A stretch of DNA of 64,000 bases from a virus. This document shows, piece by piece, positions 2,048 to 63,628 of this stretch. The stretch spans positions 1-64,000 of the IMG/VR virus record IMGVR_UViG_3300006793_000018. The stretch is one strand, 5' to 3'. Positions within the stretch are counted from its first letter, which is position 1. Every line of letters begins with the position of its first letter. Position numbers and translations under genes: made by a program. The notes below the pieces were generated by a model. The model saw only the letters and a program-made list of their open reading frames with translations, was not told where the DNA came from and did not search any database.

Positions 2048-2490
2048 CCGCCTTCGATCTCGTTTGGAAAGCGTTCCGATACCCTGAGTTTTGGCACGGC
2101 ACGTCCGTCGCTAACGCAAAAAAGATCCTCGAAGAAGGATTTCACCCGTACTCATTCGGATCGCCGCATGAGGAAGATGCAATCACTTACGCGTATCAAA
2201 ACATGATTGATGAATCGGGTCCAGCAATGCTTGGATTTGATACGACTCCCGAAACTGAGATTCTCGATCCTTTAGACGAAGGTTATGATTTTGGTACAGA
2301 AGAATACGGACACATCATGATGAGAGATCGCCTTGATCCGAAGAACATCCGTCTTTTTGCTCAAGGCAACCCTTCAATGGATGAAGGAGAATGGTGGAAT
2401 TTTGTTCAAATGCTCCAACAAGCGGATCGGTTGAGTTATCGGTATCCTGATATGGATGAAGCATATGCCTCAAAAGAGGGGAGATCATGA
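2044..2490 (+). CDS. ADP-ribosyltransferase-like protein (HGT motif) with short leader MTAFDLVWK|A
   Basis: WHGTSVANAKKILEEG..F.S...DAITYA...GPAML; ATGA coupled; paralog of 346-900. Confidence 0.62.
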   Translation: MTAFDLVWKAFRYPEFWHGTSVANAKKILEEGFHPYSFGSPHEEDAITYAYQNMIDESGPAMLGFDTTPETEILDPLDEGYDFGTEEYGHIMMRDRLDPKNIRLFAQGNPSMDEGEWWNFVQMLQQADRLSYRYPDMDEAYASKEGRS

Positions 2491-3821
2491 CCGAGCCTTT
2501 ATTCGAGTTTGCTTTCTCGGACATGTTGTGGAAATCCATGACATCCGAAGACCTTGAGGAAATGAGTGCAAGATATAAAGCAAGGTTTCCTCCTGTCGAT
2601 ATGCGCCCAAATACTGGTTTGATCGAAGAGTATGCGGGAATAGACGGTTTTGGTCAAGGATTCAAATTAGCAGGAATCCCTACGCTTGCATCAACTGAGA
2701 TGTGGGATCTTGCAAATAAAGTGAGGAGGGACAATGATCCTGATCAGGAAATTATCTCTGCTTACATTGGCATGGAACAGGGGCAAACGCATCCAGATGA
2801 CTTAATTGAAAGATATGCAGACATCGCAGGAGAAAAGAAAATTCATTATCATCCATCACCGCCTTGCCAAAAATTGACTTCCGCAGGGAACTCAGGTTTA
2901 ACTGCAAGTGAAAGACTTGCACGTGCCAAAGAGGGATTGCCTCCTATCTTCAATTCGCTTTATACTGCACAGGAAATGAAGAAACACCCAGACATAAATT
3001 TGAATTCTTGGTCGATGGAACAAGCCAAAGAAGCAATTCCAGTTATGCTCGACCATCCTGAGTTGTTTGATGGTTTGGACAAAGACTTCAAGAAAATTGT
3101 GTGGGATATTCTTTCTGGAAAAGGCAAGGCAGGTACAGATCAAAATCCTCGGATGAATGCCATTGATTATGGCGCACCAACTACTCGAAACCGAATGTTC
3201 ATTGGTGAAGGATGGAATAAAAAACCAACACATTACAAATCAAAAGGTCGAAAGAATGCTCCAGCGGGGCGTTTGCCAAACCCAACCGTGTTGGATATTC
3301 TCCCGCATTTGGCAAGAGAGCATAGAGAGAATAAAGGCAGAGCAAATGCAAAAATGCAAGAATTGATGGACAAAGGCAATTTGACGCCCGAAGCAATAAG
3401 AATACTTGGAGATGGGCCACAGGTCGCCATTAGCGGAGCGATCAATCCTGGCAATCAAACATCTCAATGGCGAGATGGTGTGTCAAGAAATAAACAAAAA
3501 AGATCCTTTGCACACACATATGCTGCTGACCAACATCTTTCAGGATTGACGCATAACAGACCTGCTGTGATGTGGGATCGATTATTTACGCCAGAAGAAT
3601 TTTTGGCGATACAAGGTTTTGATCCAAATTATGATCTCTCCTCAATGATGCATCCAGATGGTCGAGAGATAACCCATGAAACATACACTACTGGGAAACG
3701 ACAAAAAGCAATTGATACTGCACTTGGAAATGTAGTAGTCCCGCCTGTTTCAAGAGCCATTGGGATGAGTGCGTTTGATGTCCCGCCCTCGGTACAAAGA
3801 ACCCTTTTAGAGCAGTATTGA
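2487..3821 (+). CDS. C5-cytosine DNA methyltransferase-like protein with leader
   Basis: Motif I YAGIDGFGQG..LAG, IV SPPCQ, VI variant MEQA, VIII AIDYGAPTTRNR, IX RLFTPEEFLAIQGF, X GNVVVPP. Confidence 0.85.
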   Translation: MTEPLFEFAFSDMLWKSMTSEDLEEMSARYKARFPPVDMRPNTGLIEEYAGIDGFGQGFKLAGIPTLASTEMWDLANKVRRDNDPDQEIISAYIGMEQGQTHPDDLIERYADIAGEKKIHYHPSPPCQKLTSAGNSGLTASERLARAKEGLPPIFNSLYTAQEMKKHPDINLNSWSMEQAKEAIPVMLDHPELFDGLDKDFKKIVWDILSGKGKAGTDQNPRMNAIDYGAPTTRNRMFIGEGWNKKPTHYKSKGRKNAPAGRLPNPTVLDILPHLAREHRENKGRANAKMQELMDKGNLTPEAIRILGDGPQVAISGAINPGNQTSQWRDGVSRNKQKRSFAHTYAADQHLSGLTHNRPAVMWDRLFTPEEFLAIQGFDPNYDLSSMMHPDGREITHETYTTGKRQKAIDTALGNVVVPPVSRAIGMSAFDVPPSVQRTLLEQY

Positions 3822-5251: not shown

Positions 5252-6385
5252 ATGGCAGCATTCAATCAAGCCTTTGATCTCGTTTTGAAAAACGAGCGTG
5301 ATCGAGTTGATCTGGGAACAGTATCAACCGATGGCGTGATTGCCTATCCTTTGGAAAGCAAGAAAAACCGTGAATTAAGGGATTTGAAAGAAGGTGGTTT
5401 TACATGGGGTCGCCCTCATAATGTCGAAGCATTCCGCAATATCGACATCAATGTACCTCACATTGCGCCAGGTATGAACCACTATACTGGTCAAATTAGG
5501 CCAAACACTGGAGTTCTAAGCATTCTTCGGGGAGGGCAAGAAACAATTGGAATCGCAAATGCACTTCCTTTGAGGAATCCATTCTTCCGAGTCAATGAAA
5601 ATAAGCAAAGAGATGCTTGGCTTGGGAGAAGGGTAGCGGGTGGTGAAAGAGGAAATGCCAATCGAACGGCGCATATGTGGACAGCAGGGGAATTGACTCC
5701 CGATGAGTTGCAACAACTGTATTCTGGAGAACGAACTCCAATGGACATCTTGGGAATGAACGAGGAAATGAATCTCACTCGAAATCTCGCTGGAGATGCG
5801 GCAATGGGAATGGGTCAATGGGGCGAGGCTCCTCGATTTGGATACACCGTATATGACATCAAAGACTCAACATTGCCTCCAAAACAAAAGTGGAAGCCTC
5901 CACAACGTCTGCCTTTGAGACAGGACTTTGGAATGCCGTGGCGAGAACCAAGGAGAGGCGGTGTTTCAGGATCTGTTGATCCGATTTTGCAAATACCTCT
6001 TGGATGGAGTGATTTTGAGCAAAAACGCCCTGATCAACTTTATGTTGAATATACCGATCCTCAAAGCGGCTACACATATAATGGAGTACCAGTACCTGTA
6101 TCTTTGACGGCAGGAAATGATTTCTCAGTTAATGCGTTGTCGAGGGGTGTTGCAACTGGGACTCATGGATTGTATTTTGATCCGAATGATTTGACAAATG
6201 CTGGAATGGAATTGTGGGATACAGCACTAACTGGCGATATTATCCGACGATCAATGGATATTTTCAAAGCAGCATGGGACGAATCTCAAGGCGACTCAAA
6301 GGCCAAATTGAATGAGGAGATTGTTCAAATTTTGCGAGATTATTATCCATCAACCCTTGAAGAAATAATGGAGATGATTTCATGA
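5252..6385 (+). CDS. Hypothetical protein with leader MAAFNQAFDLVLK
   Basis: 377 aa ORF, SD GGAGG upstream. Confidence 0.75.
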   Translation: MAAFNQAFDLVLKNERDRVDLGTVSTDGVIAYPLESKKNRELRDLKEGGFTWGRPHNVEAFRNIDINVPHIAPGMNHYTGQIRPNTGVLSILRGGQETIGIANALPLRNPFFRVNENKQRDAWLGRRVAGGERGNANRTAHMWTAGELTPDELQQLYSGERTPMDILGMNEEMNLTRNLAGDAAMGMGQWGEAPRFGYTVYDIKDSTLPPKQKWKPPQRLPLRQDFGMPWREPRRGGVSGSVDPILQIPLGWSDFEQKRPDQLYVEYTDPQSGYTYNGVPVPVSLTAGNDFSVNALSRGVATGTHGLYFDPNDLTNAGMELWDTALTGDIIRRSMDIFKAAWDESQGDSKAKLNEEIVQILRDYYPSTLEEIMEMIS

Positions 6386-7560
6386 CCATGGATCTCCGTA
6401 AAGAGCATCCCCAATACAAAAAAGCATTGAGGGCTTTGCAAACAGGCGGATCGTTGCCCCCTGCAATCAAAATCCAAGGCAACAAAGCAAATCCGCAGTA
6501 TCAGCGGATTGGTCGTGCGTTGAAAGAGATGTTCCCTGATCGTCGAGTCATAGAACCATTTGGCGGAGCAGCGGGTCTTTCTTTGGGTATGAGGCCAAAG
6601 GAATCCATGCTTATGGACATCAATCCAGATCTGGCATCCTTTCATCGACGTTTGATTCATGATCCTGAATCTTTGCAATTTGAACCTGAAGAATTCACAT
6701 ACCAAACAGGTGATTCGGTACTGATGCCTAATCAAAACACGGGCGAAATGATGGATCTTGGTAAAATTCCACAAAGTATGGTTGATGATATGGGTGGAAA
6801 GCCTTTCTTTATGGGTCCAAAATTTTATGAATTGCGCCAAGAATTCAATCAACTCCGTGAAAAGGAAGCACGTGGGGTTATTGCTCAAAGTGAAAGGCAA
6901 AGAAAAGATCAATTGTTTTTGGTTCTCCAGCATATGTCGATGAACGGTTTGCTTAGGTACTCTCCTTCAAAACCTTCGTTCTTCAACAAATGGAACAGTT
7001 CGATACGATTTACAGGAAATAAGCCAATCAATCAACATTTTGAATCGAGTTTCTTTGATATGATGGGGGATCAGTCGAGTCGCCTAAAACCTGGAAAGGG
7101 GAACACATTTAGGCCACAAACCCTTTTGGGAGGGAAAGGTCGATGGAATTTGGACCCTTGGGCAGAAGTTATGCAAGATTGGGAATACTTGGATCGGCCA
7201 TTGGACGAACAGTTGTCATCCGATATTGGAATCGATCCTGCTAACGATATGTTTCTTCTCGATCCTCCGTATTTGGGAGAAGAGGGAGCATTGAATTTCT
7301 TTACAATGGATGATCAAAACAAAACCCTCGGTATGATTGAGTCTTTGGCTTCCAACGCTTTTCCGACAGTTGTATTCAATTCATTTGAACCTGCCATCGT
7401 GAATCCAATGAAAGAAATGGGATTCGACATCCATGAACTTCAACGAAAGGAAACAAGCGGTGGCAAAGGTGCTGTTCGAGGGAAAAAGTCGGAGTTAATG
7501 GGAATGGCGAATGTCGATCAGGGAATCTTCCAAAATGTTTGGGAACAAATGGGCAGTTAA
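6382..7560 (+). CDS. Dam-like (D12 class) N6-adenine DNA methyltransferase
   Basis: IQGNK, EPFGGAAG, MDINPDL, NGLLRY..FN, catalytic LDPPY. Confidence 0.85.
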   Translation: MTMDLRKEHPQYKKALRALQTGGSLPPAIKIQGNKANPQYQRIGRALKEMFPDRRVIEPFGGAAGLSLGMRPKESMLMDINPDLASFHRRLIHDPESLQFEPEEFTYQTGDSVLMPNQNTGEMMDLGKIPQSMVDDMGGKPFFMGPKFYELRQEFNQLREKEARGVIAQSERQRKDQLFLVLQHMSMNGLLRYSPSKPSFFNKWNSSIRFTGNKPINQHFESSFFDMMGDQSSRLKPGKGNTFRPQTLLGGKGRWNLDPWAEVMQDWEYLDRPLDEQLSSDIGIDPANDMFLLDPPYLGEEGALNFFTMDDQNKTLGMIESLASNAFPTVVFNSFEPAIVNPMKEMGFDIHELQRKETSGGKGAVRGKKSELMGMANVDQGIFQNVWEQMGS

Positions 7561-8069
7561 GGGATGTTTTGAGATACATTTGGAGCCATGGCGGTATGCG
7601 GTATTGCACCTGCTCCCGATGACCCTTGACACGATCTTAGTTCGGTGATCAAATAATTGATCATGTATTCGTTATTCCAATGATTTGGGACGCTATTTGC
7701 TTGTGCAAAAAGTTGAATCCATGTCAAATCGCTCCCAAACATCCGAGCGAATGTTGTTGCGTTTTGTTGTGCAGACTTTTGTCCGATCCAATTGTCTTCC
7801 TCTTGAAGTACCTGTTCCGCAGAAGACATAAGACCAGACCACGATTGTTGTTCTGGAGTTAAATTTGCGCTCGTATAAATGGGATTCTGCATGTGGCAAA
7901 GCAATCCTATGGCTGCATCTTTTGGAAATGTGCTACCGCGAGAATTTGATTCAGCGTAACGTCGAATCCAAGTCGCAACCGAATGTTGATCAACGGACAT
8001 TCCGTCCAAGGCTTGGTTGAAAGATCTTAGCGTGTGGACCGCTATAATGATGTCCGGCGTGATACTCAT
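7557..8069 (-). CDS. Hypothetical protein (lone minus-strand gene)
   Basis: 170 aa ORF filling the gap between the Dam-like gene and the RHH gene; AT-rich TATA-like element about 30 nt upstream. Confidence 0.7.
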   Translation of the reverse strand: MSITPDIIIAVHTLRSFNQALDGMSVDQHSVATWIRRYAESNSRGSTFPKDAAIGLLCHMQNPIYTSANLTPEQQSWSGLMSSAEQVLQEEDNWIGQKSAQQNATTFARMFGSDLTWIQLFAQANSVPNHWNNEYMINYLITELRSCQGSSGAGAIPHTAMAPNVSQNIP

Positions 8070-8120
8070 GTGTTTGTCCAGAAGGGCGGATTTATTTCAT
8101 CTTGTCGGGCATCTCAACGC

Positions 8121-8127
8121 TCATATA
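8121..8127 (+). promoter_or_regulatory. Putative archaeal TATA box (TCATATA)
   Basis: 30 nt upstream of ATG 8151; same heptamer at 28886-28892 before the protease gene. Confidence 0.5.
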
Positions 8128-8150
8128 GGTGTGAGGCATGAGAGGGAGTT

Positions 8151-8297
8151 ATGGGAAGACACGTGTCTGTCGTGATGAGGGAAGATCTTTTTATTAAAAT
8201 GGAACAAGAAAGAGGACGAGAATCAAAGTCATCTTTCATGAATCATGTTCTTGCATTTTACTTCAAAAACAAGACAACTGGAGATGACCATCAATGA
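8151..8297 (+). CDS. Ribbon-helix-helix (CopG/Arc-like) DNA-binding protein, 48 aa, absent from the ORF track
   Basis: Manual translation MGRHVSVVMREDLFIKMEQERGRESKSSFMNHVLAFYFKNKTTGDDHQ: strand, helix, G-x-x-S-K-S helix; ATGA overlap with 8294. Confidence 0.75.
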   Translation: MGRHVSVVMREDLFIKMEQERGRESKSSFMNHVLAFYFKNKTTGDDHQ

Positions 8298-8725
8298 CTA
8301 AAACCGATGCACAAACATATTACCCCGCCCCTTATGTCCAAGACGACTCAAATCGAATTGACGTGAACTTGATCGCAATGCTACTATGGCAAGCCCTTCT
8401 CACGGGAACCTCAGTTGCAGTATCCCACATGGGATGGTATCTTCCCGACGCAGGAGCCGCAGAAATGGGACTTCAATACGGTTTGATCTGCTTTGGCTTC
8501 CTCTGCACAGCAATGGTTCTTTTCCATGTAGGTGGAGTGCGAGATTCTCTTGCTATGCGAGCCGAGTTCGCTAAAGAGAACCAAGTGGACAAGTGGATGC
8601 GAGGTCAACAGCGGCTACATCAGCGTCGGGCCAATAAGAGAAATTATTGGCAGCAACAATCGGCACAATCCCCATCCGGCGTTCAGCAATTCGGAATACC
8701 TCAAAAGAAAGACGACGAAAACTGA
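8294..8725 (+). CDS. Membrane protein (2 predicted TM helices, Q/R-rich tail)
   Basis: Hydrophobic LIAMLLWQALLTGTSVAV and GLICFGFLCTAMVLFHV. Confidence 0.75.
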   Translation: MTKTDAQTYYPAPYVQDDSNRIDVNLIAMLLWQALLTGTSVAVSHMGWYLPDAGAAEMGLQYGLICFGFLCTAMVLFHVGGVRDSLAMRAEFAKENQVDKWMRGQQRLHQRRANKRNYWQQQSAQSPSGVQQFGIPQKKDDEN

Positions 8726-8736
8726 GGGGTATCCTT

Positions 8737-8961
8737 ATGTGGCCTTTCACAACTAACCAAGAACGTCAAACGGAGGCCATGTCCCAAATCTTGGCCGAAA
8801 ATGCGTATGAACGAAAGATGGAGAGGGTGGCAGGATGGGTAAGGACAGTTGTCGCCTTGATCGGAGGGGTGGCCCTAACATTCGGAATTTTGTTTGCATT
8901 GGAGATCTTTGGAATTTCTCCATCGGACGTGGTTGGCTTCTTCAAAGGCTTAAGCGGATAG
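8737..8961 (+). CDS. Small membrane protein (1 TM plus amphipathic end)
   Basis: ATG 8737 after GAGGGG; VVALIGGVALTFGILFALEIFGI. Confidence 0.7.
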   Translation: MWPFTTNQERQTEAMSQILAENAYERKMERVAGWVRTVVALIGGVALTFGILFALEIFGISPSDVVGFFKGLSG

Positions 8962-8968
8962 GTGGATT

Positions 8969-9703
8969 TTGATGTCAGCCCTTATCGCAGGGCATATGTT
9001 GATGGCATCAACCACTGCGCTTTATTCGTTGTATCGTGTATTGAAACCTTATCGCGTTGGGATATACGGTCCATCCTTGGTTGGCAAGACTACTCTCGAT
9101 CAGTATTTGACAGTCCCAGGTGATATTGAACCTATACCTTTGAATTTTCGCACAGCCCATCCTAAAGCGAAGACGCTAACTGGTTTCCAAGAGCCAAATG
9201 CTACCCGCAAGAAACTTCGATATAAACAAGAAAAAACTCCAGTTCAAACGGCAGATCTGGCGGGAGATCATATGTTTCGCAATTTGTGGGTCGATGATAT
9301 GTTTGGGCGAAAGGTTGAGTTGATCATTTACATGGTCGATCACAGATCATTAACATCTCCTCAGTTCGCAGCAGATGCTTCTGCGGGGTTGTCTTATTTG
9401 GTGGACAATATCATCAAACAAGATCTCAGCAAGAACATCTCTCGCAAGTCAAAGCGCAATTCAAAGAAATACACTCCTCGATTGTTTTGTTTGATGATCA
9501 ATAAGATCGATTTATGGTGGGATTCAAACGCTCAACAACTTTGGGAATACGGATTACAGAAGGAGCATCCTATTGTTGCCCCGTACAGAGATTCGTTGAA
9601 ACGTCTAAGGCGAGCCGGAATTAGGGCAGAAATCAAGGCAATATCATCTCAGCACGGCGTAAATGTCGAAAAATCATTGACTGAATTGCTTCAATCCATG
9701 TAG
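8969..9703 (+). CDS. Small Ras-superfamily GTPase, Arf/Sar1-like, with N-terminal hydrophobic helix
   Basis: G1 GPSLVGKTT, G3 DLAG followed by FRNLW, LIIYMVD strand, G4 NKID, G5 ISS.HG.NV. Confidence 0.85.
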   Translation: MMSALIAGHMLMASTTALYSLYRVLKPYRVGIYGPSLVGKTTLDQYLTVPGDIEPIPLNFRTAHPKAKTLTGFQEPNATRKKLRYKQEKTPVQTADLAGDHMFRNLWVDDMFGRKVELIIYMVDHRSLTSPQFAADASAGLSYLVDNIIKQDLSKNISRKSKRNSKKYTPRLFCLMINKIDLWWDSNAQQLWEYGLQKEHPIVAPYRDSLKRLRRAGIRAEIKAISSQHGVNVEKSLTELLQSM

Positions 9704-9713
9704 CGATGCCTTT

Positions 9714-10697
9714 ATGTTGCTGTCAACTATGGCAGGGTTAATGGCGTGGAATGCAAGTGCGTTCAACCCTTTCGGCGGGGGTATTTCTCTTCGTGGAATG
9801 AGCGACGAACAATTGAGGATTGTTGCTCAACAATCAGGAGTTTCGTATGATCTGTTGAAAACACAGCAACGTGCTGAGATGGCAAGTGCTGGTTCGACGG
9901 GAGATGTTGGCGATGAACAGTTGATTCCGACTGTCGAGATCCAATTGAAGTCCAACCCAAAAAACCCTGCAAAGGCACGAAAGAAAAACATCAAGATGCT
10001 TCGCAAGGCTTTGAGGCCACCATCTTATAACCTGGGTCTTTTCAAAATATACCGATACAATGCCGCTCACGAATGTGCTTGTTGCGGAGTTGACATTAGG
10101 CGATTCCTCGAAGGCGACAATGCATATGCACACATTGTCGATCAATCAACTGGGCTTTCCTTAGCAGACATTTATTGGTTTGATGAAGATACAGGAAATG
10201 CAAAAAAACCACTCGCACGGACACATGGAGATCATGGTGATGAAATGAACAGCACCCTCTGCCCCGCACACTTGCACATATACCACACACTGAGATCTAT
10301 CATGCAAGAGCATGAACTTGAGTCGCAGGGTTTCAAACGCTTTGCGAGTAAAGGAACCAAATTTACTAAGATTCCTGGAATGTCAACATTGATGCCTGGT
10401 GCATCCGCTGCTAAAAATCGAAGCACACCGGAATCTCTTCTCAAGTACGATCAGTTCTTCTCTATGATCCACAAAGATGCTCAACACAGCAAAGGAATAC
10501 ATTTGACACAATTGCCAAATCCCAGTACCGGAGTTGTTGATCTGGTACACATCACATTTGACCTAAGAGCAATTCAATCGGAAACGCTTTTGGCTCAAAG
10601 AAACTCTATGGGAATGGGCGTGAATATGCAGAATCAAATGAATAACGCTATAAATGCCTCTGGACAAGGCGTATTGACAGGAACTAACGAGGTGTGA
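9714..10697 (+). CDS. Hypothetical protein with Cys/His metal-binding cluster (probable start 9741)
   Basis: ECACCG ... HGDHG ... LCPAHLH; TTTATG at 9711 lies 30 nt before ATG 9741. Confidence 0.75.
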   Translation: MLLSTMAGLMAWNASAFNPFGGGISLRGMSDEQLRIVAQQSGVSYDLLKTQQRAEMASAGSTGDVGDEQLIPTVEIQLKSNPKNPAKARKKNIKMLRKALRPPSYNLGLFKIYRYNAAHECACCGVDIRRFLEGDNAYAHIVDQSTGLSLADIYWFDEDTGNAKKPLARTHGDHGDEMNSTLCPAHLHIYHTLRSIMQEHELESQGFKRFASKGTKFTKIPGMSTLMPGASAAKNRSTPESLLKYDQFFSMIHKDAQHSKGIHLTQLPNPSTGVVDLVHITFDLRAIQSETLLAQRNSMGMGVNMQNQMNNAINASGQGVLTGTNEV

Positions 10698-10700
10698 TTT

Positions 10701-11330
10701 ATGGGATGGTTTTCAAAAGGTGAAGCGCAACCAACTCAACAGTTTGGCGCACCGACGCAAATGGGTGGCATGTCTGGCATGGGAATGCCAATGGGAATGC
10801 AAATGGACCCGTCAATGATGGGGATGCAAATGGCTCAAAACCCAATGATGCAACAAATGGCAAGCGATCCTATTACCGCTACTGCACGTTTGCTTTCGCT
10901 AAATGATCCGTTGGCTCAGTTTATGACAACGCAAAATATGCCGTTGGTCATGGAGTTGATTGGGGAAATCGTTCGACTATCGATCAAGGAGTTTTTCTCT
11001 TCTGTTTCTTTCAAATTGGATGAGGCGACAGGTTTGCTAACATTGGATACTGCGAGTCTCCCTGCATCGATCAACACGATGTCTCCTGAGAATCTTGGAT
11101 TTACTATGACTCGATTGCAAGCGTCAGCGCAACAAACCTTGCAAATGAATGAACAACAAAGACAAATGTTCCTTCAAGCACACTCAATGGGCGGAATGAT
11201 GAATTCTCAACAACAACCAGGTTTCTTTGGAAGCCTCATTGGAGGAGTCCTTGGCAACCAAATGCAACAACAAGGTGGATTTGGTCAATCAGCCGCTAAG
11301 GTCGGCGCAATGGGGGCTGCTGTATTATGA
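10701..11330 (+). CDS. M/Q/G-rich protein with glycine-zipper-like C-terminus
   Basis: MGMPMGMQM repeats; GFFGSLIGGVLG and GAMGAAVL; SD GAGGTG. Confidence 0.75.
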   Translation: MGWFSKGEAQPTQQFGAPTQMGGMSGMGMPMGMQMDPSMMGMQMAQNPMMQQMASDPITATARLLSLNDPLAQFMTTQNMPLVMELIGEIVRLSIKEFFSSVSFKLDEATGLLTLDTASLPASINTMSPENLGFTMTRLQASAQQTLQMNEQQRQMFLQAHSMGGMMNSQQQPGFFGSLIGGVLGNQMQQQGGFGQSAAKVGAMGAAVL

Positions 11331-11578
11331 GCGACGAAGATGACATGAGGACGCCAAATCAAGCAAATGTGTACGGGCAAACCGTTGAATTGCTGAGTCC
11401 TAACAAAATGTTGGTCGAAAGTGCAACAATGATTTACATTCTCTCCTTTATGATCGCAATCTTTGTGATGCTGGTTTGGAAAGGAAGTTCGTTAAGTTCG
11501 GGACAAGTTTTGTTGGGTGCTTTAGGATTGATGTTCACTCTATCAATAGCAGTTCGACAGTTTGCTTCCTTTCGGTAG
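11327..11578 (+). CDS. Small 2-TM membrane protein (holin-like topology)
   Basis: MIYILSFMIAIFVMLVW and VLLGALGLMFTLSIAV. Confidence 0.7.
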   Translation: MSDEDDMRTPNQANVYGQTVELLSPNKMLVESATMIYILSFMIAIFVMLVWKGSSLSSGQVLLGALGLMFTLSIAVRQFASFR

Positions 11579-11591
11579 CCCCCCAAGTGAT

Positions 11592-11813
11592 ATGGGGCTT
11601 CGTGCTTACAACCCCTTGCCTTACAGCCCCGTGCTACGCCGGTTCGATCAAGACGGCGATGGCGACTTTGATTTGGAGGATGTAAAAATTCTTTTAGGCA
11701 AAAAAACCCTGTGCGGGGCCACGACAAGATCTGGACAGCCTTGCCAAAGCGCAGGGCATGAAAAATACAACAATCGATGCCATCAGCACAAAAGTGATGA
11801 CAAATCCAATTAA
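11592..11813 (+). CDS. Small protein with EF-hand-like loop and CCCH-type zinc knuckle
   Basis: DQDGDGDFDLED; CGATTRSGQPC...RCHQH. Confidence 0.65.
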   Translation: MGLRAYNPLPYSPVLRRFDQDGDGDFDLEDVKILLGKKTLCGATTRSGQPCQSAGHEKYNNRCHQHKSDDKSN

Positions 11814-11836
11814 GGGCGGCGGATGTGGGGCGAAAC

Positions 11837-12547
11837 ATGGCGGGACGACAGACTCGGAAGAATTGTCCATTCTGCCAACATCCTGATCGAGATTCATTGG
11901 AAGAAATGATTCGCAAGGGAATTCATGATGTCGAAGAAATTGATCGTTTGAATCAATGGGCAGATGGAACTTCCCACAGGCACATGCGGCGTCATTCGGG
12001 CGAATACTACAACAACAGCAATCATGATTGCCCATTGTGTACGGATCCTAACAGAGCCGAGATTGAAGCGGCTATTCTTGAGGGACACGCTGGAATCGAT
12101 GACTTTGCAACAGAGTTAGAGGTCGCAAGCAGTATCATTTCCAATCACATGGAAAAGCATACCAAGCCTATTATCCAACAACATGTGTCGATTGATGCTT
12201 TACCAACGGCAATGAAAAGCGTCCACGAATCATTGCAAAGGGTTGAAAAGAATTTGAATCGACTTGACCGATTGATGGGTCGTGTTCTTGATCATGTTGA
12301 AAATCAATTTGACGACGAAGACGAAATTGTCAATATGAGGGATGTCGAAACCGTTTTCAAGGGTCATCGTGAGATCCGTGATACTCTCCTCGAACTTGCA
12401 AAGTGGATGGATAAGGCAGAGTCGATTGATGAACGTCAGTCGGTTTCAGTCCTTACAGTCATGCAGGAGTATTTTGTTGAAAAATCACCGTCCGAATGGG
12501 CTGCTCTAAAATCAAGGCTGGTTTCCGCAGGGGTGATGAATGAATGA
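11837..12547 (+). CDS. Tandem Zn-HTH plus coiled-coil protein, candidate terminase small subunit
   Basis: Two repeats CPxCxxPxR..E...H M xxH, then coiled coil; position upstream of the head module. Confidence 0.55.
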   Translation: MAGRQTRKNCPFCQHPDRDSLEEMIRKGIHDVEEIDRLNQWADGTSHRHMRRHSGEYYNNSNHDCPLCTDPNRAEIEAAILEGHAGIDDFATELEVASSIISNHMEKHTKPIIQQHVSIDALPTAMKSVHESLQRVEKNLNRLDRLMGRVLDHVENQFDDEDEIVNMRDVETVFKGHREIRDTLLELAKWMDKAESIDERQSVSVLTVMQEYFVEKSPSEWAALKSRLVSAGVMNE

Positions 12548-18690: not shown

Positions 18691-20127
18691 ATGTCGGACG
18701 GGATGCAAGAACTGACCGCCAAAGTCGATTTTGAGATGGGGCGTCGTGATTTCAAATACTTTTTTGAAGAGGTATGTGGCAAATACGATCAACGCAACCC
18801 GTGGATCTTAACAAAATTTCACCAAGAATGGTACGATTTGTCGGAAGGCAACAGCAAGACCTGTATTATTGCAAGTCGTGACCATGGAAAGTCTGTTTTT
18901 TATCGCGTGTATTTGCTTTGGAAAATGGCATATAACCCAGGTACAGAAGTGTTGTTCTTTTCACACAGTCAACACCAATCGATTGAACACATGCAAAAAA
19001 TGAATGAGTTGATTGAGTCAATACCTGCCCTCCAACATCTCAAACCGAAGCGGGGATGGGCGAAGCAGAAGTTCAAGTTCACAAACAAATCCTCGATCTC
19101 CGCTATGTCGGTTGGAAAGGCAGTTCGTGGAGCGCACCCTCAAATTGTAGTCCTTGACGACATATTGTCAAGTGAAGCGCAAACTCAATTAAAACATATC
19201 TCATCGTGGTTTTACACCGCATTGTTGCCCGTTCTTCACCACACGGCTCAACTCTGTATTGTCGGAACTCCATTTTCATATACTGATCTGTATGCTGAAT
19301 TAAAGAAATTAAAATCATACGCTGTTCGAGAGTACCCCGCGATCAATGAAAGATCTGGAGAACCTTTGTTTCCTGAGCGTTGGTCGCTTGAGGCTTTGAA
19401 CAATCGGCGCAATGATATGACTTCCATCGCGTTCACAAGAGAATATCTATGCAAACCAATTGCAAGCGATGCCAGCCTTTTCCCAGAAGAAGTGTTGAAT
19501 TCTGTAAAAGATGATCAAATGGCACTTTCTTATTATCCTCGTCCAGATCAGGAATTGAATTATTACATCGGATGGGATCCTGCCATATCTGCAAATCGAA
19601 AGGCAGACTATACTTGCATGATGGTCATTGCGATGGATGAGAATAGGCATAAACACATTGTTCATACTCATCACGAAAAAGGAATGGACTTCTCTTCTCA
19701 AATCGATAAAATCATCGAATTAAACGCAAGATTCAATCCAGTGATTATCGAATTGGAAACAAACAATTTCGCAATGGCGTTCAATCAAGTCCTTGCTGAG
19801 ATCGGTGATCTTCCGATAAAACCATTCAATATGAGTCGAATGAAGAAAGAGGCTTTAATTCATACCCTCCAACTGCACTTTGAACGGGGACACCTCATAA
19901 TCCCCTACAAAGACGAGGGAGCGACTTTGAGATTGATGAATAATTTGCTAACAGAACTCTCCACTTTCACCATGCTCGACAACGGTCGAATGGAAAGTCT
20001 TGGAGGACACGACGATATGGTTATGGCCCTCGCTCTCTCCGTTCAGGCTACAAAGGAGTACCGTGACAACATTGTGATACTCGACGCAGAACAATGGCAA
20101 TCAAGATTGGGGTGGGCAGGTGCTTAA
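18691..20127 (+). CDS. terL: Terminase large subunit
   Basis: Walker A SRDHGKS, RGAHP..VVLDD Walker B, VGTP, nuclease IGWDPA, HDDMVMALAL. Confidence 0.95.
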   Translation: MSDGMQELTAKVDFEMGRRDFKYFFEEVCGKYDQRNPWILTKFHQEWYDLSEGNSKTCIIASRDHGKSVFYRVYLLWKMAYNPGTEVLFFSHSQHQSIEHMQKMNELIESIPALQHLKPKRGWAKQKFKFTNKSSISAMSVGKAVRGAHPQIVVLDDILSSEAQTQLKHISSWFYTALLPVLHHTAQLCIVGTPFSYTDLYAELKKLKSYAVREYPAINERSGEPLFPERWSLEALNNRRNDMTSIAFTREYLCKPIASDASLFPEEVLNSVKDDQMALSYYPRPDQELNYYIGWDPAISANRKADYTCMMVIAMDENRHKHIVHTHHEKGMDFSSQIDKIIELNARFNPVIIELETNNFAMAFNQVLAEIGDLPIKPFNMSRMKKEALIHTLQLHFERGHLIIPYKDEGATLRLMNNLLTELSTFTMLDNGRMESLGGHDDMVMALALSVQATKEYRDNIVILDAEQWQSRLGWAGA

Positions 20128-21343
20128 GGAAATCAAGGGAATTGATGGCGTTGAATCCATCGCAGAGGCTTTGCTAAAGTTGGATGCGAACCAAGTTATC
20201 GATCAAGAGTTGAAAGTCAATGCTCAAGAGAAAAAAGTTCTTCAAGACAAAAAGCAAGTCAACAGCAAACTTGGAAACGTTGGGAGTCCAAGAGAAGAAT
20301 CTGGAATAGAAGGGATGGATTCTCCTCAAAGTTCTGCGCCAACACAGCAACCAGGTACTGAATTACTGGGCAAGTCATGGTTCCGAGATAACTTTGGGAT
20401 GGAGGGAACTGAGATCTGCGAGATATTTATCAAAGGAGGTCGTGAGGATTTGATACCTGTTCTGCAACCTTTGATTCGAGCAGAACGAATTGCTCTCTTA
20501 AAATCGTACCCTTCCGTGTCCGAATCATTGATTGATGAGTTGCCATTCACTGATTTTGATTATTCGATGCTCCAAAGGAATCCAAAATCGTTAGAAATCC
20601 CATTTAGGCGTCTTGTGAAATCATGGAATGACTCCACAAGCGATCATGAACGAGAGAAATCATATGATGCATGGTCAAATCGTATTTCAAAGAAGGATCA
20701 TCTAACCATTAGGGAACATGGATTGTTGCAGAAATGTGCCGAATATCTCAATGATAACGGCGCAATGAATGCTCAATCTTTACAATCATATGGGTTTGCT
20801 GCCAGTTCCAGTGAAATTTCAATGCTAATCAAATCACATGGATTCCTTTACAACATCTCTGCGGTTGGAACAAGCCAAAAGAAAAACATGCGTGGCACAT
20901 TTTATGACGTTGAACGAGGAGATCTTATGATCAAAAACGCCGGTGCATTGATCGGGGGATTGTTTGATCATGGAGGGCAAATACAACTTAATCCTCAAGG
21001 CTCGCCCCGTCTTATTCTCCCGTTTAATTCAGCAATATGCAAACATTATGCTGACTCTTTGAATAATGAACTGGGAGTCATGGGAGTTATTGCAGAAGGC
21101 GATGGCATTGTCATTGAAGGTGAAGACGCTGTTTCAAAATCGCTGGATGTGGCAATACCATTTATCCACAACAAAACAAGCGAAGCAATTATCTTAAAGA
21201 AGGCAATTGAATTGGACGATAATGCAATGAGATGTTTGACATATGATCACTCATCGAGTCGCCACAAGGTTTCTCTCTTGAAATCATGGGGCATGTCCGA
21301 CGAACAATTACTTGCTATGAAGGAGAGTGTTGTAAATGGCTGA
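20120..21343 (+). CDS. Hypothetical protein with degenerate LAGLIDADG-like C-terminal domain
   Basis: AGALIGGLFDHGGQIQLNPQGSPRL...LNNELGVMG resembles the LAGLIDADG helix-strand unit; lies between terL and portal. Confidence 0.5.
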   Translation: MLKEIKGIDGVESIAEALLKLDANQVIDQELKVNAQEKKVLQDKKQVNSKLGNVGSPREESGIEGMDSPQSSAPTQQPGTELLGKSWFRDNFGMEGTEICEIFIKGGREDLIPVLQPLIRAERIALLKSYPSVSESLIDELPFTDFDYSMLQRNPKSLEIPFRRLVKSWNDSTSDHEREKSYDAWSNRISKKDHLTIREHGLLQKCAEYLNDNGAMNAQSLQSYGFAASSSEISMLIKSHGFLYNISAVGTSQKKNMRGTFYDVERGDLMIKNAGALIGGLFDHGGQIQLNPQGSPRLILPFNSAICKHYADSLNNELGVMGVIAEGDGIVIEGEDAVSKSLDVAIPFIHNKTSEAIILKKAIELDDNAMRCLTYDHSSSRHKVSLLKSWGMSDEQLLAMKESVVNG

Positions 21344-23132
21344 TCGTAAAAAAATGGAGCGGCTGTTTTCCGCCATCGGAATGGACATGGAAAGGCACAC
21401 TACCCCAATGCCGTCCATGCCTTTATTCCAATCAGGAATACAAGAACCTGCTTTGTTGCAAGGGATTACCATCCCTGCGCTTTATGCTGCATCGTATGAG
21501 TGCGTCGTGCTTCGATCAATCCTAAACCACTTGTCCGTTGAAACATTCCGTAAAGGATTTGGCTGGAAGCCTAAATTTGTTGTAAAGTGCCGTTCATGTG
21601 AAGAAACCTACAATCAAGAAGTTGATGAGTGTCAAAAATGTGGAGGAGAAGTTCGCAAAGCCGACAAATCTCAATTGGAATATGCTGAGTCTTTGATTTC
21701 TTCACAGAATAATATGTTACAAGATTTCATTGAAATTCTTCGTGAAATTGAAATGGATCTAAACATTGTCGATGATGCATACCTGATCTTAACGAAAGAA
21801 TACTTTGTTGATCCTGATACCAAGAAGGTGATGTTTTATCGGGTAAAGGAAATCAGTCGAGCAGATCCTATTTTTATGCGGATACTTGCAGATAAGAGAG
21901 GGGTTCGAGGTGGAAGCCAATACACAAGTCTTGTTGATCGTACCTTCCGAACCAATGACCCAAAGAAAAAGTGTCCAACAACAGGAACCCCTGTTGTTCC
22001 AATTCACTACATGAACCTTGCAGGAGTCGGCAAAGGGCAGGTATATACCGAGGGCGAAGTCATACACATTAGCAAATGGTCGCCATCGAAATTGTATGGT
22101 CGAAGTCCTGTTGCAACGATGTGGCGACAAGTCAATACCCTCATTGCAATGGACAACTATGTTTATTCTGCTTACCAAAAGAAGCGTATGCCACGTGGAG
22201 TTATGGTGATCAAGTCATCGAACATGGAAACTGTTGAACGAACTGCTCGGAGTATTCAAGAACACCTTGAGCGTGATCCAAATTACATACCAACAATCGG
22301 TGTCGAAACTGAATCGGGACGGGGCGGTTTGGAGTATGTCCGAATGATGGACACTCTTGAAGAATTGCAATACATCCCGATCAAGGATGACATCCGCCAG
22401 CGTATTGCTGCCTTCTTTGGGGTTTCCAATGTATTTATGAACGATGTATCGGGTGGTGGGCTGAATAACGAAGGAATGCAAATTGTGGTTAGCAATCGTT
22501 CCGTCGCTTACGCCCAGTCAATTTACAATCGAGTTCTTTTCCCTCAAATCTCAGAGGCATTCGACGTCACCGAATGGGAATTGAAACTCAACCCGCATGA
22601 AGAGGAAGACGAAATCATGCATCTCCGAAGAGATGAAATGGCAATTCGTAACATGATGCAGATGAAGCAAGCCGGTTATGAAGCAAGCCTTCGAGATGGA
22701 ATTGATGACAAGATATTGCACTTCGACTTTAGGGAGCCAAATCCAGAAGAAGTCGCTGCCGCTCAACAAGCCGCTGCCGCTCAACAAGGAGGACAGGGAG
22801 GGCAACAGGTGGCAAAAACGGACGAAGGATTCCTTGATGATCCAAACATCGTCATGAAACGGACAACTTTCGATTCCTCGCGTGGATCGGTAGTAGTTCC
22901 TTCTGCCATGCACAACGCAATGGATCCAACAAATGATCTCCCCCCGCTGAGAACGATTAGTCAAAACACAAGAAATTCAGCAGGAGCATCACCAGGTATG
23001 GTGAAAAGGCAAGAAGGATCTCCGACAGGCGCAAGCAGCAAGACTGACAAACGGAGTCTAAAATCTCCTGCCGAAGTCGCAACTGATGCAAAGTTGAACC
23101 AAATGAAAAAGCGCAATGGATTGGATGAATGA
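21336..23132 (+). CDS. Portal protein (with Zn-ribbon insertion)
   Basis: D..IVDDAYL, EVIH...PSKLYGRSP, MPRGVM, IAAFFGVS; CRSC..CQKC insertion; position after terL. Confidence 0.9.
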   Translation: MADRKKMERLFSAIGMDMERHTTPMPSMPLFQSGIQEPALLQGITIPALYAASYECVVLRSILNHLSVETFRKGFGWKPKFVVKCRSCEETYNQEVDECQKCGGEVRKADKSQLEYAESLISSQNNMLQDFIEILREIEMDLNIVDDAYLILTKEYFVDPDTKKVMFYRVKEISRADPIFMRILADKRGVRGGSQYTSLVDRTFRTNDPKKKCPTTGTPVVPIHYMNLAGVGKGQVYTEGEVIHISKWSPSKLYGRSPVATMWRQVNTLIAMDNYVYSAYQKKRMPRGVMVIKSSNMETVERTARSIQEHLERDPNYIPTIGVETESGRGGLEYVRMMDTLEELQYIPIKDDIRQRIAAFFGVSNVFMNDVSGGGLNNEGMQIVVSNRSVAYAQSIYNRVLFPQISEAFDVTEWELKLNPHEEEDEIMHLRRDEMAIRNMMQMKQAGYEASLRDGIDDKILHFDFREPNPEEVAAAQQAAAAQQGGQGGQQVAKTDEGFLDDPNIVMKRTTFDSSRGSVVVPSAMHNAMDPTNDLPPLRTISQNTRNSAGASPGMVKRQEGSPTGASSKTDKRSLKSPAEVATDAKLNQMKKRNGLDE

Positions 23133-28914: not shown

Positions 28915-30303
28915 TTGATGACGGCAGCAAACCTCTCAGTATCCTCCGCAACATGGTCTGCGGATGGCTCTGATTTTTTGCTAAAATCTGCTGCATCAAA
29001 CGGCGATCTATTCGTCGCAGGATATGCATCGGTCGATATGGTCGATAAGCAGGGAGATCGTATCCCAGTCCCTGCGCTAAAGAAGGCATTCAATCAATTC
29101 ATGGGCAACAAGGCATTCCGCAATGTCCAGTTGGCACACTCTGGCATCCAAGTTGGAGAAGTTGTTTCCGATTACAAAGATACAGAAGGCCGACTTTGGA
29201 AATCCGAAGTCGATGATCATGGATTGTTCGTTGTTTGCAAGATCCGCAACGACATTCAAAAGGCACGTGAAGTGCAGAAGCAAATCCGCAATGGAGAACT
29301 ACGGGCGTTCTCAATTGGCGGTCAGGCACTATTTCGTGTGTCGAAAACAACCCCCGAACTCGGTACTCATCGTGAGATTACCGACCTTGAACTCCATGAG
29401 ATCACACTCTGCAAGAAGGGAATCAACCCTGAAGCAGCGTACACGATCCTAAAAATGGACGGAGATGACAACATGAGCAATACAGAAGTGTTAAACGAAA
29501 TTAAGGCAGGACTTTCCGAAGTTCTCAAAGAATTGAATGAAGGAAAGTCGGATGCAAAGACTGACGACAAATACATGAAAAATGTCGATTGTGACGATGA
29601 GGGCAACCCTATCGGACAAAAAGGCGATGACAAGATGAAGAAAGCCCAACAGGACGACGCTCTTGCATACATCGATACCCTCGAAAAGTTCGCTCACCAA
29701 TCTGGTGTTGATCTCGACGGACTCCGTGATCACTTTGGTTTGGAGAAGGCTTACCTTCCAGAACAAGGATCTGGCGGATACTCTCACCGAGGACAAGGCG
29801 ATGAAGTTGGATCTGGCGAAGATGCAACCGAACCATCGTACCCATCTCTCCCAAGTCCTGGCGGCAACCAATATGTGATCAAGGGGCCAAGTGTTCCTAA
29901 CATGAACATGGGCGCACCATCGGGCAACCAAAACGTCATCAAGTCCCTCACCCCAGAAACTCTGGAAAAGGGATACCGAACCTACGCTGCCCTTCGTGAC
30001 GAAGAAGCCGTGAAGGGTCTTGTCGAAAAGGAATGGCAGGAACGCTACAACGCAGAAACCGCACAGGCTCTCGAAGTTCGCAAAGCCAACGATGTCGGCG
30101 CACAAATCCACGCTCTCCGTGAAGAGATCTCGATGCTCAAGTCAGAGAATGTCGATCTCCAAAAGAGCGCAACCCCTGTGCCATCCGCACCAACCACTTC
30201 CATCCGAGTACCAACCCACGATGAATTTTCCCAAATGGGATCTGACCTCGAAGGCTGGCGAGCCGCAGAAGCACTTGCTATGCGAGCATTGCGAGGGGAA
30301 TAA
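28915..30303 (+). CDS. Prohead protease fused to scaffold region
   Basis: VAGYASVDMVDKQGD, QLAH..IQVG, GLFV, RAFSIGG, LHEITLC..G.NP; acidic coiled-coil C-terminal half; directly upstream of MCP. Confidence 0.9.
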   Translation: MMTAANLSVSSATWSADGSDFLLKSAASNGDLFVAGYASVDMVDKQGDRIPVPALKKAFNQFMGNKAFRNVQLAHSGIQVGEVVSDYKDTEGRLWKSEVDDHGLFVVCKIRNDIQKAREVQKQIRNGELRAFSIGGQALFRVSKTTPELGTHREITDLELHEITLCKKGINPEAAYTILKMDGDDNMSNTEVLNEIKAGLSEVLKELNEGKSDAKTDDKYMKNVDCDDEGNPIGQKGDDKMKKAQQDDALAYIDTLEKFAHQSGVDLDGLRDHFGLEKAYLPEQGSGGYSHRGQGDEVGSGEDATEPSYPSLPSPGGNQYVIKGPSVPNMNMGAPSGNQNVIKSLTPETLEKGYRTYAALRDEEAVKGLVEKEWQERYNAETAQALEVRKANDVGAQIHALREEISMLKSENVDLQKSATPVPSAPTTSIRVPTHDEFSQMGSDLEGWRAAEALAMRALRGE

Positions 30304-62914: not shown

Positions 62915-63628
62915 TCATGCTCTTGCCATCTTTACGCGCTCTTGAGGAACTTCTGTTTCACTGTTAATCGCACGAACGATTCGATCTGCACGAACCTTTC
63001 CAATGCCCTCTGTGACCATCAATTCCTTGGCACTGAGCGAAGCAATTTCAATGATCGAGCCATGTTCTTCGAGTAGCCTCTTGGCGATGGCAAGGCTACA
63101 TCCTGCCGCCTGGAGGATGTCGATTCTCATGTCTTCTGTGGCGGTCTTCCGAAGGAGCCGATAGGTTGAGGATGATCCAAGCGTTCCATGTTTCTCAAAA
63201 CGCTTTGCAATGAAACGAGCGGCGAGAGAGGTTGAGTCAAATGTTAGGATCGAAATGTCGTAGTCAGTGGCATATCTTGCTAAAGACCCTGTAAATGAGG
63301 CGAAGGCACGTTGGAAAGGTATTTTCCTCCCTCCCTTTCGTGCAGATCCAACATACTTGTCCAAAGTCCCATGGATCACTAAGTATGCATGGTTGTAATT
63401 GTCTTCCAAATTCTGCAACTGCTTTTCAAGATGTCCTGAATACATGCTTTGCATGTAGTCTTGAATTGTTTTTGCTTCGATTCCGACGTCTGCAAAAGAG
63501 TAATCGGTGATCATCGTTTGTCTCATTTGATGATTCAAATTTTTCTTGTCGAGATATTTGATGATCAGTTTTTCAAGACCAGATCTCTCTCGATTGTCGA
63601 TAAAAAGTACGCGTTGATCGGACATCAT
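62915..63628 (-). CDS. ERCC4/XPF-family structure-specific nuclease with HhH domain
   Basis: IDNRE, DY, IEAKTIQDY..S..GHL..QL, C-terminal EGIGKVRA. Confidence 0.88.
   Translation of the reverse strand: MMSDQRVLFIDNRERSGLEKLIIKYLDKKNLNHQMRQTMITDYSFADVGIEAKTIQDYMQSMYSGHLEKQLQNLEDNYNHAYLVIHGTLDKYVGSARKGGRKIPFQRAFASFTGSLARYATDYDISILTFDSTSLAARFIAKRFEKHGTLGSSSTYRLLRKTATEDMRIDILQAAGCSLAIAKRLLEEHGSIIEIASLSAKELMVTEGIGKVRADRIVRAINSETEVPQERVKMARA

Follow-up and report, generated by a model that had tools for sequence, protein, structure and literature searches.

What does a small GTPase do in a tailed virus of archaea, and to which branch of its superfamily does it belong? The question is raised by a gene at positions 8972-9703 of a 64,000-nucleotide (nt) stretch of viral DNA, here called the window, which comprises positions 1-64000 of the linear 90,300-bp IMG/VR record IMGVR_UViG_3300006793_000018 (85% complete according to CheckV). 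A first-pass annotation, made from the sequence alone, had described the product as an Arf/Sar1-like GTPase with a hydrophobic N-terminal helix and an aspartate in place of the catalytic glutamine, and had proposed a viral membrane-remodelling switch with reference to the vesiculating GTPase ArvA/OapA of haloarchaea. As judged from its sequence, the product is a small GTPase of the Ras superfamily (TRAFAC class) with intact GTP-binding motifs and three lineage-specific inserts. It is located on the Arf/Sar1/SRbeta/Rag side of the superfamily, not with Ras or Rab, and it has no demonstrable membership in a named family; of its identity as an Arf-side small GTPase we are highly confident. The wider reading, according to which the GTPase belongs to a gene cassette that works at the host membrane together with viral partners, probably in virus release, is tentative, and we hold it with slightly less than even confidence.

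The open reading frame (ORF) 8969..9703 on the plus strand has 244 codons and opens with TTG; the next codon is the ATG at 8972. Because an AGGTGG-like stretch is located about 7 nt upstream of this ATG and the N-termini of the homologues read MSA..., the ATG is the likelier start and yields a protein of 243 amino acids (aa). The translation contains GPSLVGKTT (G1), DLAGD (G3), NKID (G4), and ISS (G5) in the expected order and spacing, and the four complete boxes reported in the first pass are therefore confirmed; in the family, the G5 pattern is [IVM]-[SA]-[SAT]-Q. Of 698 candidates in a homologue search, 104 proteins passed E <= 0.01; they are 41-90% identical to the window protein and originate from Joint Genome Institute (JGI), ENA, Logan, and Tara marine assemblies, with contigs of up to about 96-116 kb. 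Two of them bear the JGI name 'GTPase SAR1 family protein'. In an alignment of 56 of the 104 homologues with the window protein (A1, 57 rows), the residues G33, G38, K39, T41, D95, G98, W106, N177, K178, and D180 are invariant, and in switch I the same holds for T47, R60, and T61. As in G-alpha or MglA, an internal arginine could come from the invariant R60-T61 pair. Conservation was also followed in 84 loci, namely the best 80 of 168 IMG/VR contigs encoding a relative plus four loci obtained from 185,579 species genomes; the GTPases of these loci are 39-88% identical to that of the window. The P-loop and the NKxD motif are kept in all 82 ORFs of the set formed by the window gene and 81 of the 84 loci (three were dropped, the GTPase ORF being unresolved there). 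A search for fused or extended GTPases gave none, which is weak evidence. A shorter form of 220-223 aa, without much of the long switch I insert, was observed in a cluster of marine contigs of 92-98 kb (P0118 cluster); the insert therefore varies between virus groups.

Arf proteins are described as carrying a glycine at the third G3 position, followed by the catalytic glutamine (DxGGQ; PMC11914678), and the G3 consensus of the viral family is DIGGQ. DxxG is followed by Q in 57 of the 82 ORFs, by D in 12, and by E in 12 (unresolved in one), and two of the 57 rows of A1 have H there. At the third G3 position, 50 ORFs have G and 31 have A, as in the window, and G at this position is followed by Q in 45 of 81 ORFs. 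The exchange of Gln for Asp noted in the first pass is thus real for the clade of the window but does not describe the family. The ratio of nonsynonymous to synonymous substitution rates (dN/dS) of the window GTPase, calculated against its two nearest relatives (loci L002 and L015), is 0.059, which indicates that the Asp clade is strongly constrained. The alignment of switch II with Arf, previously made by eye, was reproduced by HMMER, which pairs DigGQsqfrnlW of the family with DLGGQLHFRNLW of the Asgard Arf-related protein GerdArfR1 and with DIGGQPRFRSMW of Arl8A.

The structure predicted by AlphaFold2 from A1 (mean predicted local distance difference test score, pLDDT, 87.9; predicted template modelling score, pTM, 0.85) begins with a helix and continues in the order beta1-alpha1-beta2-beta3-alpha2-beta4-alpha3-beta5-alpha4-beta6-alpha5. 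There are three additions, namely a long switch I, a basic loop with a helix, and a Trp-rich segment after G4 (residues in Table 1), and switch I and G3 are separated by a predicted beta2-beta3 hairpin (residues 78-84 and 87-94). In Arf proteins, the interswitch hairpin toggles with the change between the GDP and GTP states. A Foldseek comparison with the PDB gave at least 500 matches at E <= 0.001, and those listed were small GTPases; for the predicted model, this confirms the small-GTPase fold, not the subfamily. In a VIA-align run against 48,161 representative chains, in which rows within one Z unit are regarded as tied, Arf6 obtained the scores 17.3 and 17.2, followed by Sar1 (16.7), SRbeta (16.5), the Asgard RagA-like LokiRagO (16.3), Arl2 (15.7), G-alpha (15.6 and 15.4), RagD (15.1), and Arl13B (15.0), with Rabs at 14.5 and below.

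Sequence comparisons point in the same direction. When the A1 profile was run against PDB sequences, the top match was 8oun_A (E 7.1e-6), that is, full-length GerdArfR1 (bioRxiv 10.1101/2024.02.28.582541), followed by Arl8A/Arl8B at about 5e-3 and then Arl6 and Arf1; Rab33B (E 0.12-0.21) was the only non-Arf small GTPase listed. A profile search of 1.84 billion representatives returned 90 proteins at E <= 0.001, mostly fragments of the same GTPase family. Ten distant full-length relatives were compared with Pfam, and for five of them the best family was Arf above its cut-off (P0190, 66 bits; P0178, 60.7; P0179, 36.2; P0169, 27.2; P0185, 26.8), the best families of the others being SRPRB (one), Roc (one), and GTP_EFTU (two), with no match for the last. 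One distant relative bears the JGI name 'signal recognition particle receptor subunit beta'. As a lead only, the non-viral look-alikes that come nearest among named ESM Atlas clusters are of bacterial origin, and 17-67% of the members of these clusters have Pfam Arf. P0116, a protein of 2180 aa with 23 stretches, was rejected as a relative, since it is a fibronectin-type repeat protein and was read as a chance match. A tree of 52 rows was calculated with IQ-TREE from 15 of the 57 A1 rows, six divergent viral-type matches, nine orphan matches, and 22 Asgard references, the last taken from a single metagenome-assembled genome (MAG) of Promethearchaeati (G002; six Arf-type, ten Ras-type, and six Rag-type ORFs). 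The Arf-type group is heterogeneous, with several multidomain proteins, and L089 was left out, no ORF having been found at that locus. The Asgard Ras/Rab group is separated from all other rows with a support of 100/100, and the viral family is joined to seven orphan metagenome proteins with 100/98; the viral family and the Asgard Arf and Rag proteins share one side, which itself is a polytomy. Placement on the Arf side follows from the agreement of the profile search of PDB sequences, VIA-align, Pfam on the distant relatives, and the tree, and the earlier naming of Arf, Sar1, and SRbeta as the nearest known relatives of a real small GTPase is borne out in this sense.

Several results speak against a closer or simpler placement. 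In Foldseek, the top matches were Rab27B, Rab6, and Rab43, ahead of Arl1 and Arf1. The Pfam matches of the window GTPase itself are below threshold (SRPRB, E 0.017 and 15 bits against a cut-off of 25; MMR_HSR1, 15 bits), Arf (PF00025, gathering score 22.3) is not among its matches at E <= 10, and it also remains under the NCBIfam cut-offs (small_GTP, 13 bits vs 42.5). Pfam Arf matches of relatives are weak evidence when taken alone, because this model gives matches in 13 of 14 control genomes as well, including that of Escherichia coli. An hhalign comparison of A1 with the Asgard Arf, Ras, and Rag groups gave 74.8, 72.2, and 62.8, in which Arf and Ras tie. The phylogeny proposed in the first pass was carried out with Asgard Arf-, Ras-, and Rag-type proteins as its only references; it split off Ras and Rab, but left the branching order among Arf, Rag, and viral proteins without support. 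A search of PHROGs with the GTPase gave only a 20-residue P-loop match to a Sak4-like family (E 0.19).

Comparison with the established families shows where the viral protein agrees with them and where it departs from them. With the Arf family (Arf6, Arf1, Arl8, Arl6, Arl2, and the Asgard GerdArfR1, PDB 8OUN/8OUM) it shares the G-domain fold, the best sequence-profile matches, a consensus switch II of the type D-x-G-G-Q-x-x-F-R-x-x-W, and a helix ahead of the G domain. It differs from Arf in length (243 vs about 180 aa), in a switch I longer by about 15-20 residues, in the basic insert before beta5 and the Trp-rich insert after G4, in the A and D that the window protein has in place of G and Q, in an uncharged N-terminal helix without clear amphipathicity, in the position of the window protein below the Pfam Arf cut-off, and in a host order that yielded no small GTPase. 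Sar1 and SRbeta, tied with Arf6 in VIA-align, resemble it in the hydrophobic N-terminus, in a G domain that is predicted to be cytoplasmic, and in a catalytic position that tolerates residues other than Gln, and SRPRB is the top Pfam match of the window GTPase; unlike in these systems, no partner of the Sec23/24 or SRalpha type is recognisable in the cassette. Sar1 and SRbeta use His at the catalytic Gln position. Rag/Gtr1-like GTPases, for which LokiRagO and RagD gave the Z scores listed above, fall with the viral family on one side of the split from Ras in the tree, and one member of the viral family (P0093) has a precomputed Gtr1_RagA match; against this, the hhalign score for the Rag group extends over 125 columns and is lower than those for the Arf and Ras groups, and the viral GTPase has no C-terminal roadblock domain. 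The Rab of mimivirus (PDB 5XC5; Z 14.5, Foldseek E 7.8e-8) is also a virus-encoded small GTPase, but as a true Rab it mimics the Rabs of the host and belongs to a giant virus of eukaryotes, whereas the GTPase described here is Arf-side and no counterpart was found for it in the host order.

A special case is ArvA/OapA, described as the vesiculating GTPase of Euryarchaeota that acts with ArvB/ArvC (PMC10927574). The same source reports that arvA is followed by arvB (OapB, PF09846) in 93% and by arvC (OapC, PF09845) in 78% of the genomes with ArvA. The viral system resembles it in that a small GTPase of the archaeal world, with a helix at its N-terminus, is encoded in an operon with a conserved partner directly downstream and with a Zn-binding protein; the link to membrane vesiculation is a feature of ArvA (PMC10927574). 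The comparison is one of gene context, not of GTPase sequence, and the context differs, since OapB and OapC gave no match at E <= 1 in the 90.3-kb virus record and are not among the families detected in the cassette neighbours, and OapB was found in none of 41 genomes of the host order, in a search whose control rings in Haloferax volcanii and Methanosarcina acetivorans. The gene context thus gives no support to the ArvA/OapA link suggested in the first pass.

In Arf proteins, membrane binding that depends on GTP is mediated by an amphipathic helix at the N-terminus, and in the proposed membrane reading it is the N-terminal helix that would bring the viral G domain to the membrane. In the window protein, about 21 uncharged residues are followed by R22, K25, and R28, and 35 of the 57 A1 rows remain uncharged as far as the end of the hydrophobic window (before R22); the best 19-residue window of the helix has a mean Eisenberg hydrophobicity of 0.51. 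Other properties weigh against the membrane reading. The hydrophobic moment is 0.12 over 18-19 residues, and only residues 15-25 are amphipathic (moment 0.61; 0.49-0.81 in the N-terminal helices of two Asgard Arf proteins). The Kyte-Doolittle value of 1.16 is under the usual threshold for transmembrane (TM) helices and below the values of TM helices in the neighbouring proteins (1.59-2.38). From its sequence, the helix appears hydrophobic and does not look like a classical amphipathic helix, and an in-plane helix and a weak anchor are both candidates. The likeness to Arf, Sar1, and SRbeta claimed in the first pass therefore holds for the presence of a hydrophobic helix but not for an evident Arf-type amphipathic character.

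The GTPase gene is part of a fixed, co-oriented block in this virus lineage, which encodes a basic, a two-TM, and a single-TM protein, the GTPase, a Cys/His protein, a Met/Gln/Gly-rich protein, a further two-TM protein, and Zn-knuckle proteins (Table 1). Conservation of the neighbours was scored by tblastn (E <= 1e-4, same strand, offset from the GTPase start). The short length and the divergence of the small proteins, together with flanks truncated at contig ends, make their counts (49-51 of 84 loci) lower bounds. The protein encoded directly downstream of the GTPase, an orphan, has invariant residues C121, C183, P184, H186, H188, and H191 in 43 rows. Its AlphaFold2 model has a pLDDT of 70.3 and gave no fold match (best VIA-align Z 4.2; best Foldseek E 0.57), and no family was found for it in Pfam or PHROGs and no lead in the ESM Atlas (best score 0.75). 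The basic protein at the head of the block has no Pfam family at E <= 1, a ribbon-helix-helix-like look being apparent by eye only. Among the membrane proteins, that of 8294..8725 has 19-residue Kyte-Doolittle windows of 1.65 (residues 26-44) and 2.13 (residues 64-82) and only a weak PpoB2 match below the cut-off; that of 8779..8961 reaches 2.38 at residues 23-41 and has no Pfam family; and that of 11327..11578 passes the Pfam family RseC_MucC (E 7.7e-6, 26.3 bits, cut-off 24.4) over the two-TM hairpin of that family. The Met/Gln/Gly-rich protein has no family and a maximum Kyte-Doolittle value of 1.05. Below the cut-off, the protein of 11592..11813 matches EF-hand_6 (E 0.013), EF-hand_1 (E 0.036), and Asp-B-Hydro_N (23 bits), and for the last protein of the block no family was found at E <= 0.01, only weak matches. 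The divergent intergenic stretch of 80 nt ahead of the block (8070-8150) holds a TATA-like element, recognised by eye, CATATAGG, about 21 nt before the ATG of 8151..8297, and probably contains the cassette promoter.

Table 1 Features of the GTPase, its cassette, and the virus record. Coordinates refer to the window; those marked L115 refer to the part of the record beyond the window
Feature	Position	Strand	Conservation and remarks
Small GTPase, 243 aa	8972..9703	+	Motifs, alignment, AlphaFold2 model
GTPase, hydrophobic N-terminal helix (AlphaFold2)	residues 2-24
GTPase, G1	residues 33-41
GTPase, extended switch I	residues 48-77
GTPase, G3 (DLAGD)	residues 95-99
GTPase, basic insert (loop and helix)	residues ~148-168
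GTPase, G4	residues 177-180
GTPase, Trp-rich insert	residues 181-202
GTPase, G5	residues 224-226
170-aa ORF abutting cassette head	7557-8069	-	Fixed offset, 25/84 loci
48-aa basic protein, cassette head	8151..8297	+	49/84 loci, offset ~-854, median identity 67%
143-aa protein, two TM-like helices, basic Q-rich tail	8294..8725	+	49/84 loci, offset ~-702
60-aa single-TM protein, directly upstream of GTPase	8779..8961	+	51/84 loci, offset ~-210, 67% identity
327-aa orphan Cys/His protein, directly downstream of GTPase	9714..10697	+	84/84 loci, gap ~10 nt in most
209-aa Met/Gln/Gly-rich protein, Gly-rich hydrophobic end	10701..11330	+	66/84 loci, offset ~+1734
83-aa protein, two TM helices	11327..11578	+	50/84 loci, offset ~+2370; Kyte-Doolittle 2.38, 1.59
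73-aa protein, EF-hand-like acidic loop and Cys/His knuckle	11592..11813	+	
240-aa protein, two CxxC-type knuckles, helical C-terminal half, block end	11825..12547	+	83/84 loci, offset ~+2862
Terminase	18691-20127		
Portal	21336-23132		
Prohead protease	28915-30303		
HK97-type capsid protein	30325-31479		
Tail tube-like protein	35889-38045		
Giant ORF, 1629 aa	44158-49047		After tail genes
Giant ORF, 2508 aa	49053-56579		After tail genes; weak Laminin_G_3 (concanavalin-like) match
ERCC4 and helix-hairpin-helix nuclease, archaeal/eukaryotic XPF/Hef type	62915-63628	-	E 2e-16
DNA methyltransferase, C5 type	2487-3821		
DNA methyltransferase, D12-class N6 type	6382-7560		
DNA methyltransferase, second C5 type	L115:1117-2448		
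PAPS reductase-like gene	L115:3512-4498		
Thermosome-type chaperonin, full-length	L115:15240-16847 (79240-80847 of the whole record, G000)	-	Cpn60_TCP1 E 3.2e-132

The assignment of the record to an archaeal-type tailed virus was correct, as it encodes a terminase, a portal, a prohead protease, and an HK97-type capsid protein, the last 33-34% identical to the counterparts of HVTV-1 and HCTV-1. Among 50,697 phage records, the capsid protein matched the Druskaviridae haloviruses (eight records, 33-34% identity), the only other matches being three records of methanogen viruses (two viruses). The haloarchaeal setting of the first-pass annotation was nevertheless not upheld, and a haloarchaeal host was rejected on account of a GC content of about 45% and of the marine homologues. 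Of the four loci found in species genomes, one comes from a Poseidoniales single-cell genome, where a 106-kb contig encodes a GTPase of 53% identity. The other three, in a Parvibaculum MAG (L002 and L005) and a Promethearchaeati MAG (L004), carry the same viral cassette; these contigs are probably binning errors and could mislead claims on host or gene transfer. Magroviruses, the viruses of Marine Group II, are reported to be marine, to have a structural module of the halovirus type, in which the capsid protein shows about 33% identity to its counterparts in haloarchaeal siphoviruses, and to carry a thermosome gene, chaperonins being drawn there as a magrovirus feature (PMC5434244). The record shares the level of capsid identity, the thermosome, and, as judged from homologues in Tara samples, the marine origin. 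A simple magrovirus label is opposed by the statement that all 26 magrovirus genomes encode a family B DNA polymerase and MCM (PMC5434244), whereas neither Pfam DNA_pol_B nor MCM was detected in the 90.3-kb record, in a first-look filter that divergent or split genes may escape, and DNA_pol_B was not found either in two relatives (G153 and G154) of 91% and 92% completeness. Divergence or splitting may hide these genes, or the lineage may lack them. The virus is magrovirus-like, and because of the single-cell-genome contig, the marine homologues, and the thermosome, its host is most likely in Marine Group II (Poseidoniales).

Counterparts of the GTPase were also sought outside the lineage. No relatives were detected by tblastn in the 50,697 phage records; the description as rare in Caudoviricetes is thus accurate outside the lineage but not within it, where 168 IMG/VR contigs encode a relative. 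The A1 profile and a profile of the Cys/His neighbour (A2) gave no match at E <= 1 in HVTV-1 and HCTV-1, A1 being able to find its targets in the whole record (G000) and in G001. Since these two viruses have the closest capsid proteins and yet no match, the GTPase block lies outside the morphogenetic module shared with the haloviruses. In 151 genomes of the host order, A1 had a single match, namely the viral contig itself, and a recent capture from the host was rejected on this ground. Pfam Ras gave weak matches only, of at most 24 bits and in frames of about 375 aa, in five of 41 host-order genomes.

According to the reading that we favour, the N-terminal helix would hold the G domain at the host cytoplasmic membrane or deliver it there, and GTP binding and hydrolysis would switch the contacts of the GTPase with the virus's own cassette partners, with the Cys/His protein as the prime candidate for an effector or regulator. 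The cassette would act on the membrane at a set time, most plausibly late in infection and in egress or lysis. A role at the membrane and in release is suggested because the clearest membrane proteins seen in the cassette region adjoin the GTPase, because the block is lineage-specific yet universal within the lineage, and because archaeal tailed viruses have no known egress machinery, their egress players being called completely uncharacterised in a passage of a review (PMC10791045). The sampled host order yielded no homologue, Ras-type GTPase, or ArvB, which makes viral partners or lipid likelier targets than mimicry of a host GTPase. As with the properties of the helix, it counts against the proposal that the Cys/His protein has no recognisable GTPase-activating protein, guanine nucleotide exchange factor, longin, or roadblock fold. 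In a bolder version, the cassette would be the missing egress machine itself, in which a GTPase anchored by its N-terminal helix, with hydrolysis as timer or driver, assembles the small membrane proteins and the Cys/His and Met/Gln/Gly-rich proteins into a membrane-breaking or vesiculating structure, in a host without small GTPases of its own. We regard this version as unlikely. If true, a lysis or release system controlled by a GTPase would be described for the first time in a prokaryotic virus, and an Arf-type membrane switch would be seen to operate beyond Asgard archaea and eukaryotes.

Position and composition of the block also fit other explanations. The cassette is located directly upstream of the terminase, portal, protease, and capsid genes and has the same orientation, with a small basic protein at its head and Zn-knuckle proteins at its end, and its GTPase has a helix that is only moderately hydrophobic. 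These features would suit a switch in the cytosol that controls virion assembly, genome packaging, or late genes; the helix would then pack against the protein itself or a partner, and the neighbouring membrane proteins would be unrelated. HVTV-1 and HCTV-1, which share the morphogenetic module, gave no match to the GTPase or its partner at E <= 1, so that assembly of this virion type does not need the GTPase, and the TM proteins hold fixed offsets to the GTPase across divergent clades; we consider such a switch rather unlikely. If, in contrast, the helix were a true TM anchor, the GTPase could be an SRbeta-like receptor that docks or inserts the membrane proteins of the cassette or another viral protein, without any remodelling. 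This would agree with SRPRB as the best, though weak, Pfam match, with the SRbeta chains in VIA-align (Z 16.5, 15.8, 14.9, and 14.2; tied with Arf6 and Sar1), with a long uncharged segment that is followed by basic residues and has a moment of 0.12 at a mean hydrophobicity of 0.51, with the JGI name of one distant relative, and with the three small membrane proteins of the block. Against this, the Kyte-Doolittle value of the helix is below the TM threshold and below the values of the neighbours, the SRPRB score is under its cut-off, and no SRX, longin, or roadblock fold was seen in the model of the Cys/His neighbour, which is of moderate quality. SRbeta is known from eukaryotes only. A receptor of this type therefore appears improbable.

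Two further explanations concern the purpose of the cassette and the activity of the GTPase. Membrane-protein cassettes of tailed viruses are often exclusion systems, and with no host homologue found and orphans as partners, a membrane GTPase that blocks competing viruses, host division, or host defence, and does not serve egress, would be conceivable. Genes for host takeover, superinfection exclusion, or anti-defence are usually patchy, whereas the GTPase and its downstream neighbour co-occur in all 84 loci over the wide range of GTPase identities given above, and the GTPase is under strong purifying selection; we give this explanation a low probability. In the clade of the window, finally, the GTPase could be locked, binding GTP without cycling and serving as a constitutive scaffold. 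The reason for considering this is the DLAGD of the window, in which Asp replaces the catalytic Gln and Ala the third-position Gly of G3. D or E is present at the Gln position in 24 of the 82 ORFs and A at the Gly position in 31, with the combinations A+D and A+E in 19. All nucleotide-binding motifs are kept in the 82 ORFs, however, and the D clade has the low dN/dS mentioned above. A carboxylate may still position or activate water, and the His of Sar1 and SRbeta, which also occurs in two of the 57 family rows, indicates that other polar catalytic residues are tolerated. A pseudo-GTPase is hence very unlikely.

The cassette is a concrete candidate module for how viruses of Marine Group II act on the host membrane or exit through it, and a conserved, strongly selected Arf-like switch stands among the few membrane proteins of these genomes. 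The finding extends the Arf-side small GTPases to a prokaryotic tailed virus and bears on the spread of Arf-type switches beyond Asgard archaea and eukaryotes, for which Arf GTPases reported on a mobile-element-like region of an Asgard genome offer a comparison case (PMC11529989). A literature search gave no description of a magrovirus GTPase, and the word GTPase does not occur in the main texts of three magrovirus papers (PMC5434244, PMC10160649, and PMC11706807), whose supplementary gene tables, outside this search, might list it.

Further genes of the record are given in Table 1. The two giant ORFs probably encode fibre or adhesin proteins. Beyond the window, the record also encodes a PD-(D/E)XK nuclease and a UvrD-like helicase.

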